Sequence record: NC_002730.1
DNA: 38,297 nt
Source: Enterobacteria phage HK620
Strand: one strand, 5' to 3'
In this document: piece by piece, positions 4,481 to 36,610 of the stretch
Position numbering within the stretch: position 1 is the stretch's first letter
How the letters are laid out: every line of letters begins with the position of its first letter
Program-made: the position numbers and the translations under genes
The notes under the pieces: generated by a model
Database searches by the model: none
What the model saw: the letters and a program-made list of their open reading frames with translations, nothing else
Told to the model about the DNA's origin: nothing

Positions 4481-5068
4481 TCAGAAAGGAGGGTAATCGT
4501 TCTGGCTGTAACCATAATCATCTGCATGATTCTGGCTTACGTTTTTAGAGCGATTGTCTTTATCTTTGAGGCTGGCAACCATGTTGGCGATAGTTTCTGG
4601 TTGCTTGCCTACCGCCTTTTCTTTAAGGGTTTGACCTGTTTGTGCAATAAACGGGATGCGTATTTCCATCTGGTAGCTGTCTGCGCCAGTCTTTTTGTTT
4701 GTGGTTAATACTTTCTGGAGCACTAACCCGATTTTCTTTCCATGAAATTCAGGAGCAACAAATTTACTGGCGGAAACCATATGTTGCGTTAATTGTCCAA
4801 TCCCGGCACACCCCATCATGGCGTGGACGACATTTGCGCCAAATTTATTTTCCGTTCCGTCATTTTTCTGAACACAAACGCTAAGATATTGGATTTTACG
4901 TCCGTCGTCGGATTCGCCAGAAAACTCAATAAATTTGGCTCCTTTTTCTGATTGCTTTAGTTCTGCTTCAGTAATGGTAATGATATGAGCGCCAGTTTCG
5001 TTAATAAAACCACCTTGCCCTGCGGTCAGTGCTGCTTCTTCGTTATAAGTAAAAATCACGTTGCTCAT
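4481..5068 (-). CDS. DUF669-family protein, likely ssDNA-binding partner of Sak4
   Basis: 195-aa ORF immediately downstream of, and overlapping, the Sak4-like gene. Confidence 0.6.
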   Translation of the reverse strand: MSNVIFTYNEEAALTAGQGGFINETGAHIITITEAELKQSEKGAKFIEFSGESDDGRKIQYLSVCVQKNDGTENKFGANVVHAMMGCAGIGQLTQHMVSASKFVAPEFHGKKIGLVLQKVLTTNKKTGADSYQMEIRIPFIAQTGQTLKEKAVGKQPETIANMVASLKDKDNRSKNVSQNHADDYGYSQNDYPPF

Positions 5069-5745
5069 GCGGCGTTTTCCTTAATTTGATGAACATTATT
5101 GATGCCGTAGTAATCACAAACAGTGGCATCGACGAAAGAGAGATCGTTATCAATCTCATTGGAGTCAAACATTCCCATTGGGGATTTAACAGTGTCTGCA
5201 CCGTTGTTTTTTGTGGTGAAAAAGAACTGGTCATCACGGGTAAGGGTGCGAAGAACTATAGTAAACATGCCTTCGACAGTGATTTTCTCGTCCAGCATTT
5301 TGCCGATAGTTTTCATTTTCACGCGCCCCATAGGGGTTTCTTCGGTGTGTGCAAGAAAATAGACTCTCAGGTCATCAGGTGCATCCTGTGCAGCCTTAAT
5401 CACCTCCCATGCGTGGCGGCCTATCTCAGTAAATTTATCAAACGATTTTTCTTCTGAGCGGCGCATAAACTCATTGCTCATCACATACTGGAAGTCATCA
5501 ACAATAACGATTCTTTTCCCGTATTCGTGAGCACGCTTAATTACGGCAACTATTACGTCCCATTTGTCAGTGGTAACTACGGTTCCTTTTTTTGCTCTGG
5601 CATCCCATGCCAGCCATTCTTTTGATTTAAAAGGTAGCGGCTTGCCTATTGGTTTTATAAGTATTGCTTCCTCTGGATTGATATTTCTCATGCTGGTTGA
5701 TTTTCCGGTGCCAGATTCACCGAGTATTAATGTCGCAGTTCCCAT
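5065..5745 (-). CDS. Sak4-like RecA-family recombination ATPase (AAA_24)
   Basis: 226-aa ORF with Walker A ILGESGTGKST near the N-terminus; sits where lambdoid phages carry recombination genes. Confidence 0.8.
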   Translation of the reverse strand: MGTATLILGESGTGKSTSMRNINPEEAILIKPIGKPLPFKSKEWLAWDARAKKGTVVTTDKWDVIVAVIKRAHEYGKRIVIVDDFQYVMSNEFMRRSEEKSFDKFTEIGRHAWEVIKAAQDAPDDLRVYFLAHTEETPMGRVKMKTIGKMLDEKITVEGMFTIVLRTLTRDDQFFFTTKNNGADTVKSPMGMFDSNEIDNDLSFVDATVCDYYGINNVHQIKENAA

Positions 5746-5753
5746 AATTTGCC

Positions 5754-5954
5754 TCAGAATGGTAATTCGGATGGGACGGAAAGAAATTCGCGCTCATTCA
5801 TGCGCTCTCTTTGAGCCTGCCATAAACAAAGTTGTTTCTTTGATTTATCTCCCGCTTTACGCCAGTAACGAGCCTCAGCAATGTGATATTCTCTTTTTAA
5901 TCGACTTAATTCTGGAGTTTTCGCCAGTTCTACCGGAATCATTTTGACCTCCAT
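5754..5954 (-). CDS. hypothetical small protein
   Basis: 66-aa ORF between kil-like and Sak4-like genes. Confidence 0.45.
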   Translation of the reverse strand: MEVKMIPVELAKTPELSRLKREYHIAEARYWRKAGDKSKKQLCLWQAQRERMNEREFLSVPSELPF

Positions 5955-6052
5955 TTTCTGTAGGCTTCGATGGCCTCACGAAACATCTTTTCATCGCCAA
6001 TAAAAGTGGCGATAGTGAATTTAGTCTGGATAGCCATAAGTGTTTTATCCAT
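5939..6052 (-). CDS. kil: Kil-like host cell-division inhibitor peptide
   Basis: Internal ATG gives MDKTLMAIQTKFTIATFIGDEKMFREAIEAYRKW..., resembling lambda Kil from memory; directly downstream of cIII. Confidence 0.55.
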   Translation of the reverse strand: MDKTLMAIQTKFTIATFIGDEKMFREAIEAYRKWRSK

Positions 6053-6185
6053 TTTTGGGAACTCCTGGCTGATTAAGTACGTCGATGAGTCGTTTCCATC
6101 CGTCACGTAATTTACGGGTGATTCGTTCAAGTAAAGATTCGGAAGGGCAGCCAGCAACAGGCCACCCTGCAATGGCATATTGCAT
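6045..6185 (-). CDS. cIII: CIII, FtsH protease inhibitor
   Basis: MQYAIAGWPVAGCPSESLLERITRKLRDGWKRLIDVLNQPGVPKNG is near-identical to lambda CIII as I recall it. Confidence 0.75.
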   Translation of the reverse strand: MQYAIAGWPVAGCPSESLLERITRKLRDGWKRLIDVLNQPGVPKNG

Positions 6186-6334
6186 GGTGTGCTCCTTATT
6201 TATACATAACGGAAAACGCCTCTCGTGAAGCGTTATTGGTATGCATATAAAAAGGCCCTCACATTGGAGGGCAAAGAAGATTTCCAATAATCAGAACAAG
6301 TCGGCTCCTGTTTAGTTACGAGCGACATTGCTCC

Positions 6335-6362
6335 GTGTATTCACTCATTGGAATGAATACAC
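6335..6362. promoter_or_regulatory. perfect 9-bp inverted repeat GTGTATTCA-N10-TGAATACAC
   Basis: Read directly from sequence in the intergenic region between cIII and the counter-oriented gene. Confidence 0.4.
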
Positions 6363-6482
6363 AGTGCAGTGTTTATTCGTATGCCTGTCTTTTAACCACA
6401 TCAGGCTCGGTGGTTCTCGTGTACCCCTACAGCGAGAAAAATAGTAAAATCCTCTTACCCCTACAGTAAGAGAGTAATTTAT

Positions 6483-6977
6483 ATGGATGTGTTATCTGGT
6501 ATAACTGCCGCGAAACAGGCTTATGATCTGCTGAAGACAATAAAAGAAACCAGAGACGATGCTGTTATCGCTAAAGCTATTGGTGATCTACACCAAAGAA
6601 TAACTGACTTACAGATGCTTAATGCGGAGCTCTCTGGCCTTTATCAGGCCGAGAAGGAGATCGCAATGAAGCTTCGAGATGAAAATAGAAAAATCAAGAT
6701 GTTTGTTGTGCAAGCTGAGAATTATGAACTTCATACAACTGAAGGTGGTTCTGTCGTGTATCGACCTAAGAGTCATTCCGATCATTCTATTCAGCAGCAT
6801 AACCTTTGTGCACATTGCTTCGGCGAACATAAAATATCGATACTTCAACCAAGCACGGTTACTATAAAATCTAATGGATTCTTTGTGCATTCATGTCCTC
6901 GCTGTAAGAATGAATACCGGATGTATAGAGCGCCAGACCCTAAGCCTGTATATGTACCGCCGCTGACAAATTATTAA
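6483..6977 (+). CDS. hypothetical protein: N-terminal coiled coil, C-terminal zinc ribbon (CAHC...CPRC); oriented against the leftward operon
   Basis: 164-aa ORF with ATG start; lower GC than neighbours; preceded by palindromes and direct repeats. Confidence 0.6.
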   Translation: MDVLSGITAAKQAYDLLKTIKETRDDAVIAKAIGDLHQRITDLQMLNAELSGLYQAEKEIAMKLRDENRKIKMFVVQAENYELHTTEGGSVVYRPKSHSDHSIQQHNLCAHCFGEHKISILQPSTVTIKSNGFFVHSCPRCKNEYRMYRAPDPKPVYVPPLTNY

Positions 6978-7007
6978 TTTTATTCCTGAAATGGCCTCTT
7001 CACCCCC

Positions 7008-7370
7008 TTACTTTGTCAGGGGGATATCTCCTTCAGTTTTGACCATTCGCCTTAATACTTTCCTTAAGTCGATGTAAAGTTGAAGGTCTCCATTTGCTGC
7101 GGCATCAGCCATTTTTTGCCTGACAAGCAGTAATGTTTCATACGGCTCAATAAGAATATCGTCATGAGTAATTAGGTGAAGCGTTGCCGCATCAACTATT
7201 CCTAGAGCTGCGCCAAGTATCAAAAATTCCCTGCTATTTTTGTCGCATGAGGAGATAAGCGTATTTAGCGCATACCTAATATTCTTTATAGCTGTTGTTA
7301 ATGCTGCAATTTCTTCTATGGCGTCTTCTCCAATGAGCTTTTTAAGCTCATATTTTTCTTCCTGACCCAT
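7008..7370 (-). CDS. hypothetical protein, translationally coupled to N
   Basis: ATG at 7370 with GAGG ribosome-binding site overlapping the N stop (gaggTAAttATG); 120 aa. Confidence 0.55.
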   Translation of the reverse strand: MGQEEKYELKKLIGEDAIEEIAALTTAIKNIRYALNTLISSCDKNSREFLILGAALGIVDAATLHLITHDDILIEPYETLLLVRQKMADAAANGDLQLYIDLRKVLRRMVKTEGDIPLTK

Positions 7371-7372
7371 AA

Positions 7373-7645
7373 TTACCTCGCCGTCAGTTGTTTTGATTTC
7401 CGGTAGCCTGCCGCGTAAATGGCTACGTTTGGCAGGCAAATACTTCCACTGCATTCTTCTGCCTTCTTGCAGCGAATGCTTCCGAGTGATGCTGCTTTAT
7501 CTGCTCTGACGCAACCAGAGAGCTTTAGCGCAATTTTTCGCGCCAGTCGCTGCTCTTGCATTGCCTGTTCACGTTGAGCCTGTCTGCGTGCTCTGCGGCG
7601 ATTTCTGGCGTTATCGTCAGCCAGATATGTAATGACTACTGTCAT
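7373..7645 (-). CDS. N: N-like transcription antiterminator with N-terminal arginine-rich motif
   Basis: 90-aa ORF with ARM (DNARNRRRARRQAQREQ); first gene after pL/nutL; GGAGG ribosome-binding site. Confidence 0.75.
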   Translation of the reverse strand: MTVVITYLADDNARNRRRARRQAQREQAMQEQRLARKIALKLSGCVRADKAASLGSIRCKKAEECSGSICLPNVAIYAAGYRKSKQLTAR

Positions 7646-7752
7646 GTTGACCTCCGATGATTGACTTTGGCGGTGACGCGCCGGGTGCTTATCTTCAGGT
7701 TGCCGTCGTGCAGCTGCACTTCACGTCACCCCAAAGCCAACTACTCTTTGGT

Positions 7753-7794
7753 TCCCGCATTTCGGCGGGACAATCCCATCAATGTTAAAGAGCC
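7753..7794 (-). promoter_or_regulatory. nutL: boxA-like GCTCTTTAAC plus boxB hairpin
   Basis: boxB is identical to the hairpin downstream of cro (UCCCGCCGAAAUGCGGGA). Confidence 0.55.
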
Positions 7795-7839
7795 TGCCAA
7801 TCTGTTCCGTTTGGCTTCCAGCGTCCTGCTGATGGCTAA

Positions 7840-7880
7840 AGAATACTGTAGGTATTTTATTGTGTAAATACCCAAGGTAT
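7840..7880 (-). promoter_or_regulatory. pL promoter (TTTACA-N17-TATTCT on minus strand) with two palindromic operators ATACTGTAGGTAT (7843-7855) and ATACCCAAGGTAT (7868-7880)
   Basis: 13-bp palindromes of type ATAC-N5-GTAT, 25 bp apart, overlapping -10 and -35; same family as the oR sites. Confidence 0.55.
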
Positions 7881-8012
7881 TTATTTTTGATGAAATAATG
7901 ATAAACAAATGAATACAAAGGATATTTATTTTTTCGCTGTCTGCTTGTTCAGTGATTTTTATGCGGGATATGTGAAGTGGATCCCGATAGCTATTGCTGC
8001 CGGGATTATGGG

Positions 8013-8381
8013 TTAGTCAGCGAAGGTTAAGACGAGAATTACCTTAATGATGTCTGCTACAACAGACACGGCCATAGATAAACCAAAGACGATCCAAGCC
8101 ACAGTGATGTCTTCACTACCATCGTATAGAGTTCCGTAATCACTGGTGTAAGGCGTAAATGTCGCGCCTTGATACAATAGGTATAAGCTTGATCCATAGA
8201 GGATAAATGCAGATATCCCTTGTATTGCTATGATCACAAGAATCATGAAACGAGCTGATCTATGCGCCCAAGCCTGGCTTATTTTTTCTGATAGAGATTT
8301 CGCAATAAAAGCATGCGCTAAGACGTAAATTGTCGAGATTGCCAACATCCCAAAAAAGCTTGCTATAGCGGTTCCAACCAT
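8013..8381 (-). CDS. small integral membrane protein (about three predicted TM helices) encoded immediately downstream of cI
   Basis: 122 aa from ATG at 8381 with AAGGGG ribosome-binding site; begins 18 nt after the cI stop on the same strand; hydrophobic segments throughout. Confidence 0.6.
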   Translation of the reverse strand: MVGTAIASFFGMLAISTIYVLAHAFIAKSLSEKISQAWAHRSARFMILVIIAIQGISAFILYGSSLYLLYQGATFTPYTSDYGTLYDGSEDITVAWIVFGLSMAVSVVADIIKVILVLTFAD

Positions 8382-8398
8382 AATCGCCCCTTGCGTGA

Positions 8399-9115
8399 TC
8401 AAACCAGCCTTAGTTTTGTCTCAATTGCAACGCCTATAATCTTGCAGTTTCCATTGATTGGCACGAGAGGCCATGCAGGATTAAGTCCCTTGAGGTATTT
8501 ATTTCCGCCGTCGATTATCAGCTTCTTGAATGTTGCTTCGTTAGAGTCAGAAAGTTTTGCTATGACCAAGCTGCCGTTGATCGCCTCCCTTCCGGTATCG
8601 AAAAGAACGAATGTTCCCTCTGGAATGCTTAACCCAACCGGTGCCGTCATTGAATCACCTTCCACTTTAAGCCAGAACGCATTACCTTGAATATGCGCGT
8701 CAGACTCAAGCCAAACATCTATGTCTTTAATGGTGTATGGTTCGCATGCTTCACACCACGAGCCAGCCTGGATACTGCTTAACACCGGATACCTCTTTCC
8801 TGCTCTGTATTCCCCTGCATACCTTACGTTGGCATCGCTCTTAAGGCTTTCTGCCTGTTCTGCAACCTTGGCAGCAATTGACTGGCTAAAATCAGCAATA
8901 GAGACTTGCAACAATCGTGTAAAACCAGATGCAACCTCAACGTTTAGCGCGTTTCTGCCATTAAGATAATGCCCTACCGCTCCTTGGGTGATACCCAGTT
9001 CATCAGCGATTGAGTATTGGGTTATTCCCAATTCTTTCTTTTTTGACTCATACAAAGCCTTAAGCCGCTTAGCGTCTTCGAGCTGTTCTGTCGTCAGTGA
9101 TTTTTTATTTTCCAT
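8399..9115 (-). CDS. cI: CI repressor (lambda-CI-like N-terminal HTH plus C-terminal S24 autopeptidase domain)
   Basis: 238 aa; MENKKSLTTEQLEDAKRLKALYESKKKELG... parallels lambda CI; EGDSMT serine motif and FKKLI lysine motif present. Confidence 0.92.
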   Translation of the reverse strand: MENKKSLTTEQLEDAKRLKALYESKKKELGITQYSIADELGITQGAVGHYLNGRNALNVEVASGFTRLLQVSIADFSQSIAAKVAEQAESLKSDANVRYAGEYRAGKRYPVLSSIQAGSWCEACEPYTIKDIDVWLESDAHIQGNAFWLKVEGDSMTAPVGLSIPEGTFVLFDTGREAINGSLVIAKLSDSNEATFKKLIIDGGNKYLKGLNPAWPLVPINGNCKIIGVAIETKLRLV

Positions 9116-19657: not shown

Positions 19658-19680
19658 AATGACAATTAAGTGAGATGAAT

Positions 19681-20103
19681 ATGGCGACTGAACCAAAAGC
19701 TGGTCGCCCCTCTGATTATATGCCGGAGGTGGCTGACGATATCTGCTCGTTGCTTTCTTCTGGCGAAAGTTTGCTGAAAGTATGCAAGCGCCCAGGTATG
19801 CCGGATAAGTCCACTGTTTTCCGCTGGTTGGCAAAGCATGAGGATTTTCGCGACAAGTACGCGAAGGCAACTGAGGCGCGAGCTGATTCTATTTTCGAAG
19901 AGATATTCGAAATTGCTGACAATGCGATTCCAGATGCTGCTGAGGTGGCAAAGGCAAGACTTCGCGTTGATACCCGCAAATGGGCGCTGGCCCGAATGAA
20001 TCCCCGTAAGTATGGCGACAAGGTAACTAACGAGCTTGTCGGTAAGGACGGCGGCGCAATCCAGATTGAAACATCACCGATGAGCACTCTATTCGGAAAA
20101 TGA
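19681..20103 (+). CDS. terminase small subunit (Sf6 gp1-like)
   Basis: 140 aa from MATEPKAGRPSDYMPEV...; immediately upstream of, and overlapping, the large terminase. Confidence 0.85.
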   Translation: MATEPKAGRPSDYMPEVADDICSLLSSGESLLKVCKRPGMPDKSTVFRWLAKHEDFRDKYAKATEARADSIFEEIFEIADNAIPDAAEVAKARLRVDTRKWALARMNPRKYGDKVTNELVGKDGGAIQIETSPMSTLFGK

Positions 20104-29092: not shown

Positions 29093-29785
29093 ATGTTATA
29101 TGCATTTAAGCTGGGCAGAAAACTGCGCGGCGAGGAACCTTGGTGCCCTGAAAAAGGCGGGAAAGGTGGCAGCTCTGATAAAAGCGCAAAGTATGCCGCA
29201 GAAGCTCAGAAGTATGCAGCAGACCTGCAAAATCAGCAGTTCAACACCATCATGAACAACCTGAAGCCGTTTACTCCTCTGGCTGATAAGTATGTCGGCA
29301 GCCTCGAGAACTTATCGTCTCTGGAAGGGCAAGGTCAGGCACTTAACCAGTATTACAACTCTCAGCAGTATAAAGACCTTGCTGGTCAGGCTCGCTATCA
29401 GAGTCTGGCTGCAGCGGAAGCAACAGGTGGATTGGGTTCCACCGCAACCAGTAATCAGTTAGCAACAATCGCACCAACGCTTGGTCAGCAATGGCTATCT
29501 GGTCAGATGAACAACTACCAGAATCTGGCAAATATCGGTCTTGGCGCTCTTCAGGGGCAGGCAAACGCCGGGCAAACATATGCCAACAACATGAGTCAGA
29601 TTTCGCAGCAAAGTGCGGCTCTTGCAGCGGCAAATGCCAACAGACCATCAGCAATGCAATCTGCTATTGGCGGAGGTGCGTCTGGTGCTATTGCTGGGGC
29701 TGGACTTGCGAAATTAATCGGTTCATCAACTCCGTGGGGGGCTGCGATCGGCGGCGGTCTTGGTCTGCTTGGCTCGTTGTTTTAA
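29093..29785 (+). CDS. DNA ejection (internal virion) protein, P22 gp7-like
   Basis: 230 aa; N-terminus MLYAFKLGRKLRGEEP...; Gly/Ala-rich C-terminus. Confidence 0.7.
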   Translation: MLYAFKLGRKLRGEEPWCPEKGGKGGSSDKSAKYAAEAQKYAADLQNQQFNTIMNNLKPFTPLADKYVGSLENLSSLEGQGQALNQYYNSQQYKDLAGQARYQSLAAAEATGGLGSTATSNQLATIAPTLGQQWLSGQMNNYQNLANIGLGALQGQANAGQTYANNMSQISQQSAALAAANANRPSAMQSAIGGGASGAIAGAGLAKLIGSSTPWGAAIGGGLGLLGSLF

Positions 29786-34418: not shown

Positions 34419-34477
34419 ATGCCCAAAATTCACCGTGGCCATGCTGCGGCGATTCCTTGTATCTGGAGCAAATTAAA

Positions 34478-36610
34478 ATGACAGATTCAATAAATGCCAA
34501 TGTTGTAGTGAGCATGCCTTCGCAACTCTTCACTATGGCGCGTTCTTTTAAAGCCGTAGCCAATGGCAAAATTTATATCGGGAAAATTGACACTGATCCG
34601 GTAAATCCTGAAAACCGGATTCAGGTTTATGTAGAGAACGAAGACGGCTCTCACGTTCCTGTTTCTCAACCAATCATCATTAACGCTGCTGGTTATCCGG
34701 TATATAACGGACAGATTGCCAAATTCGTTACCGTGCAAGGCCATTCTATGGCTGTTTATGATGCATATGGTGCTCAGCAGTTCTATTTTCCTAATGTGCT
34801 TAAGTATGACCCTGACCAGTTCAGGGCAATTATAGAGTCACCAGAAGGTGCTGGACACGTAGGATATCAGTATCGCAGGAATACAGGGTCGACCATGAGA
34901 ATGGTAAGCGATGTGCTGGATGAGCGTGTGAGCCTGTGGGATTTTCATTGTGACCCATCCGGCAATGTAATTCAGCCAGGACCAAACGTTGACAGTCGCC
35001 AATATCTACAAGCAGCAATTGATTATGTATCGTCTAATGGAGGTGGAACAATCACCATTCCAGCAGGCTATACGTGGTATCTTGGATCTTATGGTGTTGG
35101 AGGAATTGCAGGGCATAGTGGAATTATTCAGTTGCGCAGCAATGTTAATCTAAATATTGAAGGTAGAATTCATCTTTCTCCATTCTTTGACCTTAAGCCA
35201 TTTCAGGTGTTTGTAGGCTTTGATAATGGCGATCCCGCAAGCTCTGGTAATCTGGAGAACTGCCATATTTATGGGCATGGTGTAGTGGACTTTGGTGGTT
35301 ATGAGTTTGGAGCATCCAGTCAACTACGTAATGGTGTTGCTTTTGGGCGTAGTTACAATTGTTCTGTAACAGGTATTACTTTCCAGAATGGTGACGTTAC
35401 TTGGGCTATTACCTTAGGCTGGAATGGGTACGGGTCTAACTGCTACGTGCGCAAGTGCCGCTTTATCAACTTAGTGAACAGCAGTGTCAATGCAGACCAC
35501 AGTACAGTGTACGTCAACTGCCCCTACAGCGGAGTTGAGTCCTGCTACTTCAGTATGTCTAGTTCATTCGCGCGTAACATCGCGTGCTCTGTAGAGTTGC
35601 ACCAACATGATACCTTCTACCGCGGAAGTACTGTAAACGGATACTGCCGTGGCGCATATGTAGTTATGCACGCAGCAGAGGCTGCTGGTGCAGGTTCTTA
35701 TGCTTACAACATGCAGGTTGAAAACAACATCGCGGTCATTTACGGCCAGTTCGTTATATTAGGCTCTGACGTAACTGCTACAGTCTCTGGACATCTTAAT
35801 GACGTCATCGTATCTGGTAACATCGTAAGTATTGGTGAGCGGGCTGCGTTCTCAGCTCCGTTTGGGGCATTTATTGATATTGGCCCGGACAATAGCGGGG
35901 CTAGTAATGTACAAGATATCCAGCGAGTGCTTGTAACAGGCAACAGTTTCTATGCTCCTGCTAACATCACTGATAGTGCTGCAATTACCCTGCGAGCTAA
36001 TCTTAATGGTTGCACCTTTATCGCTAACAATTTTGATTGCCGTTACATGGTCTACAACGCTCCCGGTACTACAAGCCCTGTAGTTCAGAATCTGGTATGG
36101 GATAAGTCCAATGTTATCGGCGGGACTCACGCGAATCAACGTGCAGGACAGAATCTATTTGATATGCAGTTTGCATCTGTAGTAAACAGCACTATAGAAG
36201 TACAGCTTAGCTGTGAAGATCTGAGCATGTTTAGCTGCATACTCTTCCCTGCATCATGTCAGTTGTCGTACTCGAAGATAACGGTAGATTCTGCATGGAC
36301 AAAAAGCATGTCAAATACCGCGGTATTTGAAGGTAATCAACAGGCAGGTGCTAATGTATATGTGTCGTATCCAGCTACCGTTAACCTTACAAGTTACAAC
36401 ACCCAAGGAGCGGTTCCTTTCTTTAGTACAGACACCAACTACGCATGGGTTACCAGCGCCTACTCTTTAAGTATTAACGAAAATTTAGATTTCTCGCCAC
36501 CAGCTACTTATACCAATAAAGCCAACGGACAGTTGGTTGGGGTTGGGTATAACGAGATAGGTGGGGTGCGTTCAGTTAGTGTGAGGTTGATGCTGCAGCG
36601 TCAGGTGTGA
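34478..36610 (+). CDS. tailspike protein: P22-like N-terminal head-binding domain fused to a divergent receptor-binding (O-antigen-cleaving) domain
   Basis: 710 aa from [12 protein letters not shown]...; first ~110 residues parallel the P22 tailspike N-terminus; remainder is Gly/Asn/Ser/Val-rich. Confidence 0.9.

Follow-up and report, generated by a model that had tools for sequence, protein, structure and literature searches.

It is very likely that a counter-oriented gene within the leftward early operon of Enterobacteria phage HK620 (NC_002730.1; the window analysed here is the whole stretch of 38,297 nucleotides) encodes an anti-phage protein of the Rip1 family, which would be expressed from a sieB-type promoter and would cause abortive infection through a ring-triggered pore. 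This open reading frame (ORF) begins with ATG, lies between N and cIII/kil in opposition to the pL operon, and is the only rightward gene of the stretch around that operon (Table 1). HK620 has a mosaic lambdoid/P22-like genome: its early region is like those of HK633, HK629 and HK630, and its late region, which includes a small terminase of the Sf6 gp1 type (19675-20103), is P22/Sf6-like. The segment 6200-7050 (851 bp) is 100% identical to HK630, where the ORF is labelled 'HkaP protein' without a function. A previous sequence-only reading had proposed an independently regulated moron of the exclusion-gene type at this place, and the sieB slot and orientation, the homology to the sieB promoter and the membership in the Rip1 family all support that proposal. 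Its coordinates for the ORF and the orientation against the pL transcript check out; the lower GC content that it had noticed amounts to 0.40 versus 0.42-0.44 in the neighbours, which is no meaningful dip.

Table 1. Features of the early region of HK620 around the rip1-like gene
Feature	Position	Strand	Remark
cIII	6045-6185	-	pL operon
kil		-	pL operon
Terminator-like hairpin GCCCUCCAAUGUGAGGGC + CUUUUUAUAU	6255..6272	-	Upstream of cIII; equivalent just upstream of ea10 in lambda
Long hairpin with 9-bp perfect palindrome	6325..6372	-	pL-operon intergenic element, 22-nt arms
Two interleaved inverted repeats, GCCTG..CAGGC and AACCAC..GTGGTT	6383..6415	-	Between hairpin 6325-6372 and promoter
sieB-type promoter	6420..6450	+	Homology to P22 record NC_002371.2
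Direct repeat copy 1, TACCCCTACAG	6422..6432	+	-35..-25 of predicted promoter
7-bp inverted repeat, CTCTTAC (6452-6458)/GTAAGAG (6466-6472)	6452..6472		10 nt to ATG
Direct repeat copy 2, TACCCCTACAG	6456..6466	+	-1..+10
Inferred transcription start (A)	6457	+	Mapped from P22 29727; 26-nt unstructured leader
Probable Shine-Dalgarno sequence, AAGAGAG	6468..6474	+	8 nt before ATG
rip1-like CDS ('HkaP' in phage HK630)	6483..6977	+	164 aa
Imperfect hairpin CCCCCTTAC/GTCAGGGGG	7003..7023		Just past rip1-like stop codon, overlaps HkaQ 3' end
HkaQ	7008-7370	-	pL operon, convergent with 164-aa ORF
N	7373-7645	-	pL operon
cI	8399-9115	-

Of 5426 complete E. coli genomes, 66 carried a full-length copy of the ORF at 95% identity or more (65 of the 66 at 99% or more), always on the chromosome. 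Close relatives (45-79% identity) were found in E. coli, Salmonella, Serratia, Yersinia, Pantoea, Hafnia, Edwardsiella, Sodalis and Enterobacter. Compared with four close relatives, the dN/dS of the ORF was 0.07-0.30, with synonymous sites nearly saturated (dS 0.9-3.7). Together with the full-length copies in the 66 E. coli genomes, these ratios imply a real, selected gene, and the frame is intact in those genomes rather than interrupted. A profile search with the ORF family collected 2149 cluster representatives at E <= 0.001. The imperfect hairpin just past the stop codon does not fold better than chance (z -0.4 and -1.0).

In the AlphaFold model of the protein (pLDDT 81), residues 3-78 make up a helical hairpin, and the C-terminal domain, which bears both CxxC pairs, is rich in beta structure; residues ~80-150 form a zinc-ribbon-like Cys4 domain (C109, C112, C138 and C141). 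The N-terminal coiled coil and C-terminal CxxC...CxxC ribbon that had been recognised from the sequence correspond to these two parts. The four cysteines were the sole invariant columns among 53 diverse members (21-47% identity), and they were also invariant among 22 close relatives; the Cys4 motif as a hallmark of the family was drawn from our own alignment and not from the definition given by the Rip1 authors. No hydrophobic transmembrane segment was found in the N-terminal half of the protein. The mean hydrophobic moment of residues 1-80 was 0.33, compared with 0.23 +/- 0.05 in shuffled sequences (p about 0.03), a modest amphipathic signal, whereas the maximum moment was not significant (p 0.24).

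Structure prediction and remote homology searches, both of which the sequence-only reading had suggested, led to Rip1. Foldseek against the PDB gave significant matches only to 9oox_M and 9oox_L (E 7e-7, probability 1.00, TM 0.60/0.75), and phmmer against the PDB also matched 9oox (HK446 Rip1) with E 2.4e-10 over residues 3-146. According to its title, 9oox shows the complex of Escherichia phage HK446 Rip1 and the small terminase of Enterobacteria phage T6, and its Rip1 chain is identical to HK446 gp37. The model matches the two-part fold of Rip1, in which helices make up the N-terminal part and the C-terminal domain contacts the ring. BLASTP aligned the protein with HK446 Rip1 (28% over 145 aa, E 5e-14) and with orf25 of Pseudomonas phage D3112 (27%, E 1e-14), and all three proteins matched PHROG 1244 (phrog_1244, function not assigned there) with E values from 8e-51 to 6e-58. 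This was the sole profile match of the ORF, as searches of Pfam, PADLOC and NCBIfam returned nothing above threshold; the literature searches gave no relevant match for 'HkaP' and none for 'Rip1' combined with 'HK446'. The 164-aa protein is therefore a diverged member of the Rip1 family. Considering that it is only 27-28% identical to the characterised Rip1 proteins of HK446 (gp37) and of Casadabanvirus prophages, and that HK446 Rip1 and D3112 orf25 are themselves 33% identical, it represents a third, more distant clade, in which the trigger, the stoichiometry and even the effector mode could differ.

The first description of Rip1 is reportedly that of Patel et al. (Nature 651:1060, 2026). The mechanism considered here is taken from the review PMC13434031 and from PDB titles. 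According to section 5 of that review, one protein, Rip1 ('ring interacting pore 1'), suffices for defence by abortive infection, which portal or small-terminase rings trigger; when alone, it is non-toxic (Patel et al., 2026, summarised in PMC13434031). Its escapers involve the portal in Pseudomonas phages and the small terminase in E. coli phages; 12 Rip1 monomers are arranged around the 11-mer terminase ring, and the N-terminal amphipathic helices and the ring together make a pore, with dye release from liposomes and premature lysis of the cell (PMC13434031). PMC13601566 names Rip1 among the small-terminase-subunit sensors.

Based on the homology to P22, we infer that the rip1-like gene would be transcribed rightward in the lysogen, against pL, from the sieB-type promoter, and the protein would be harmless by itself, as its characterised homologues are. 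Upon infection by a sensitive phage, late ring oligomers (small terminase in E. coli phages, portal in Pseudomonas phages) would be bound by the C-terminal Cys4 beta domain, and about a dozen copies would gather round each ring; a pore in the inner membrane would then arise from the N-terminal amphipathic helical hairpins, and the cell would lyse or collapse before progeny are complete, that is, the infection would be aborted. On induction, the prophage may protect itself by N-antiterminated pL transcription, which would run antisense through the gene and lower its expression. The third clade may recognise a ring protein other than the T6 small terminase or the Pseudomonas portal. The resident phage carries an Sf6-like small terminase and a P22-like portal alongside its own predicted Rip1. 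This small terminase was considered as the counterpart of the partner in 9oox and was rejected, as the resident one is Sf6 gp1-like and 9oox holds that of T6.

Several other explanations of the protein have to be weighed against a ring-triggered Rip1. That the ORF is a chance or decaying frame without function has practically no probability left; nothing except the 'hypothetical protein' annotations speaks for it, and the selection and homology data have already refuted it, i.e. the low dN/dS, the thousands of homologous cluster representatives, the invariant Cys4 site, the confident fold and the intact copies in E. coli. As a regulator or chaperone of the CT398/HP0958 coiled-coil zinc-ribbon type, the protein would bind a sigma factor or nucleic acid and would not be a defence effector, but searches with the 164-aa protein found neither a match to that family's profile nor a close structural superposition, and we regard this possibility as very remote. 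Somewhat less improbable, though still hardly to be expected, is a homologue of Rip1 by descent that works in another way in this clade, for example by sensing a phage component that is not a ring or by blocking the phage without a pore. The low identity to the two characterised clades would fit such a change of mode, and so would the small number of positions conserved across the family beyond the Cys4 core and the helical half, which is the least conserved part of the pairwise alignments. On the other hand, the fold matches along its whole length, including the helical hairpin, a single PHROG profile spans all three proteins end to end, and the genomic niche is the same.

This niche is the slot of sieB. 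In lambda, sieB is the sole rightward gene between ral and N (34482..35036, + strand), and P22 is arranged alike. The 164-aa ORF, HK446 Rip1 and four relatives that had been found purely by protein identity (63-79%; two from Salmonella and one each from Serratia and Pantoea lambdoid prophages) all lie in the sieB slot in the same orientation. As for Rip1, the HK620 gene is directed against the surrounding operon and has a predicted promoter of its own. One difference was noticed: HkaQ lies between the rip1-like gene and N in HK620, whereas Rip1 abuts N in HK446. The slot, the orientation against pL, the promoter module with its two CCCCTACAG boxes and the site of the mapped start are common to the HK620 ORF and SieB/Esc of lambda and P22, and SieB of these two phages and Rip1 are both abortive-infection functions expressed by the prophage. 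However, the SieB proteins have no sequence similarity to the 164-aa protein (BLASTP E 0.91 for lambda and 1.6 for P22). An in-frame internal start of the esc type is not evident in the ORF, and a consensus scan of its 5' coding region found no sas-like antisense promoter. The location of sieB without homology to SieB implies a shared cassette, and not a shared protein family.

A second setting was observed in Pseudomonas Casadabanviruses, in which the homologue is counter-oriented between the two terminase genes; the review PMC13434031 describes Rip1 at this position too, and in D3112, DMS3 and JBD30, the relatives of the ORF occupy the site of the Tab moron of JBD26. Thus, phages of two unrelated architectures carry members of the family as defence morons. 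Tab and anti-Tab of JBD26 offer a comparison, since Tab shares the site of the Pseudomonas relatives and also acts on late morphogenesis (PMC10884400). Nevertheless, Tab is an unrelated 83-aa protein that blocks tail assembly via the tape-measure protein without a pore, and it has a dedicated antidote gene (PMC10884400), whereas HkaQ in HK620 has no such linkage.

The P22 record NC_002371.2 annotates a sieB promoter at 29690..29720 and an RNA start site of sieB at 29727, and a gap-free alignment transfers both to HK620 (6420-6450 and A6457, respectively). The -10 hexamer is TAAAAT (6445-6450), and the canonical -35 position (6422-6427) reads TACCCC, a poor match to the consensus; a simple sigma-70 consensus scan reported no promoter on the + strand at 6420-6450. 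Its homology to P22 suggests that the promoter is used in the lysogen. The leader together with the early coding region folds worse than shuffled sequences (z +1.9), and GAGAG of the probable Shine-Dalgarno sequence is retained in five of six aligned upstream regions of the Rip1 type.

The two direct repeats pointed out by the sequence-only reading are exact, and they map to this promoter. As copy 2 spans -1 to +10, it would constitute the 5' end of the mRNA. The TACCCCTACAG copies lie 34 bp apart in lambda, P22 and three others of eight aligned sequences, and 33-35 bp apart in the rest, with differing sequence in between. Among these eight, the SieB cargos are those of lambda and P22, and the Rip1 cargos come from four genera. 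All eight have GTACCCCTACAGCGAG, TAAAnT and the second CCCCTACAG without variation, whereas the intervening spacers differ; because four of the eight were fetched without regard to the motif, the invariance is no ascertainment effect. Thus, rather than being absent from relatives that retain the ORF, the promoter boxes are kept in those of E. coli, Salmonella, Serratia and Pantoea. The CCCCTACAG core occurs three times in the window versus 0.19 expected, a number reached in none of 100 shuffles. The third exact copy (TGCCCCTACAG, 35521-35529) lies within a 717-aa late ORF (34457-36610) and is probably due to chance.

Such conservation appears to exceed what sigma-70 would need, which raises the possibility that a dedicated regulator, either CI or a host factor, uses the upstream repeats and palindromes as operators and that the gene is regulated rather than constitutive. 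We consider this rather unlikely, albeit less so than the alternatives discussed above for the protein. The boxes remain invariant while the spacers vary and the synonymous sites of the cargo are saturated, the poor -35 hexamer resembles those of activator-dependent promoters, and the interleaved inverted repeats just upstream covary. Yet the same boxes are found across immunity types (lambda, P22, HK446 and HK620), which makes CI an unlikely ligand, and P22 is annotated with an ordinary promoter and a mapped start. Moreover, the covariation includes G.U-compatible changes, which are more in keeping with an RNA structure than with a binding site for a protein. Binding of CI to the repeats had been raised in the sequence-only reading. 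Since the repeat has no related copies in the immunity operators, nothing points to such binding, and CI was rejected as the repeat-binding factor, with no related copies elsewhere in the window beyond chance.

The palindromes upstream of the gene turned out to be of different kinds. The perfect 9-bp palindrome is located where it had been described, with GTGTATTCA (6335-6343) pairing with TGAATACAC (6354-6362), and it is the core of the long hairpin 6325-6372 (-23.4 and -24.6 kcal/mol on the + and - strands, with z -4.8 and -5.9, respectively), in which 14 base pairs follow one another without a break on the pL transcript. Its supposed role as a regulatory element of this gene did not hold, considering that the counterpart in lambda lies between ea10 and ral, with ral and orf28 separating it from the sieB promoter. 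When 6200-7050 was used as a query, 373 phage records matched, most of them only in the first ~240-290 bases (~6205-6485), the segment that includes the hairpin, at 95-99% identity. We therefore assign this conserved hairpin to the pL-operon intergenic architecture and not to the control of the rip1-like gene. Its length is that of an RNase III-type substrate, and we know of no annotation for it. The smaller hairpin at 6255-6272 resembles an intrinsic terminator on the leftward strand.

The 7-bp inverted repeat that had been noted 10 nt before the start codon is indeed present and folds at -7.5 kcal/mol (z -3.1); however, it is confined to some alleles: HK446 has it as well, whereas in the relatives from Salmonella, Serratia and Pantoea it has decayed. 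Its left arm is upstream of the predicted RNA start, so that the hairpin could not form in the mRNA. On the - strand, it is a weak terminator-like hairpin followed by AUUUUACUAUUUUU. A search of 5500-8500 against Rfam returned a single match, the cIII thermoregulator RNA (Lambda_thermo) at 6140-6198 on the - strand (88.5 bits, E 1.4e-21), which confirms the start region of cIII.

The two interleaved inverted repeats at 6383-6415 have the topology of an H-type pseudoknot or of two alternative hairpins. Both stems keep their pairing by compensatory changes across 29 variants, such as GCCGGG/CCCGGC, TCCGGG/CCCGGA and ACCCGG/CCGGGT in one stem, and TCAC/GTGA, CTAC/GTAG and CCTC/GAGG in the other. 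For the second stem (stem b), 91% of cells were paired, whereas slid controls reached 28-50%; both sides had changed in four of six pairs, and none of 500 shuffles reached this level. Folding was equal or better on the - strand, where loops of 3, 2 and 6 nt, the last of which is A-rich, fit an H-type pseudoknot. No Rfam family matched at 6383-6415. In P22, sas RNA shuts off sieB, and the HK620 element might be the 3' structure of a similar antisense RNA, or else an element of the pL transcript. PMC12197685 gives the length of P22 sas as 105 nt.

To examine which genes follow the promoter elsewhere, a genome-wide scan with its 16-mer core was of little use, giving essentially chance matches in unrelated phyla, whereas a longer gapped pattern worked on viral contigs. 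We then sampled 120 IMG/VR contigs among the matches listed, the full promoter module being required. The downstream ORF was of the SieB type in 90 of them, of the HK446 Rip1 type in 17 and of the HK620 Rip1 type in 9 (26 Rip1 genes in total); two contigs (L140 and L239) encoded an ~80-aa protein of no assigned family, with no match in Pfam or PHROG, and in the other two the ORF was truncated. At least three unrelated cargos thus follow the promoter module 6420-6466 among these 120 sampled contigs (loci L140 to L259). This mixture marks the promoter as a shared chassis for unrelated cargos; in lambdoid and P22-like phages, unrelated abortive-infection genes, including SieB, at least three clades of Rip1 and the ~80-aa protein, appear to replace one another in it. 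The chassis may comprise the invariant, duplicated ACCCCTACAG boxes at -35 and +1, as well as the covarying element read on the strand of the pL transcript. The RNA element and antisense pL transcription could provide a shut-off of the toxin in the lytic phase, analogous to the action of sas RNA on P22 sieB. Taken as a whole, a constrained expression chassis of boxes and pseudoknot-like element upstream of the sieB slot, with swapped abortive-infection cargos, shut-off by the RNA and antisense pL transcription, and a different ring recognised by the third clade, is a tentative proposal that we hold to be possible but doubtful.

By analogy with anti-Tab and Esc, HkaQ was considered as an antidote against the predicted Rip1, and this candidate was rejected as unsupported. 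In the phage collection, HkaQ was found only on near-identical DNA, and the Rip1 relatives at 63-79% identity are without it. Its sole diverged homologue (64%) lies after N, adjoining a GhoS-like counter-oriented gene and not Rip1. HkaQ itself is a 120-aa protein of a tiny family, beginning 2 nt past the N stop codon; gene callers often stretch it to 148 aa overlapping N, and it is then named 'antitermination N domain protein' at NCBI. In lambdoid prophages with the HkaQ homologue (metagenome contigs L017-L019), the counter-oriented slot next to N/HkaQ holds a 94-aa protein with a weak match to the GhoS family of Pfam (a toxin-antitoxin antitoxin), another type of cargo at this position; the core of the sieB promoter is absent. 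Left of kil, 4481-5745 (- strand) encodes a P-loop protein (226 aa, 5065-5745) and a 195-aa protein in place of the lambda-type gam/bet/exo of HK630; HK629 matches this region, and a Sak4-like annealing protein is annotated there. Because of this difference, HK620 is a different mosaic from HK630, the identical rip1 segment notwithstanding.

The present analysis assigns a predicted function to a gene that is still labelled 'HkaP' or 'hypothetical protein' in phages HK629 and HK630, in an Stx1a phage and in 66 complete E. coli genomes, among which are O26 and other pathogenic lineages. It links the classical sieB locus of the 1990s to a defence family of 2026: the sieB promoter cassette known from lambda and P22 would drive Rip1 genes in about a fifth of the sampled viral contigs that have it. 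The third clade of Rip1 is a natural comparison for what sets the specificity of the trigger. With regard to phage therapy and the ecology of Stx phages, prophage genes of this kind would help predict which incoming phages abort.
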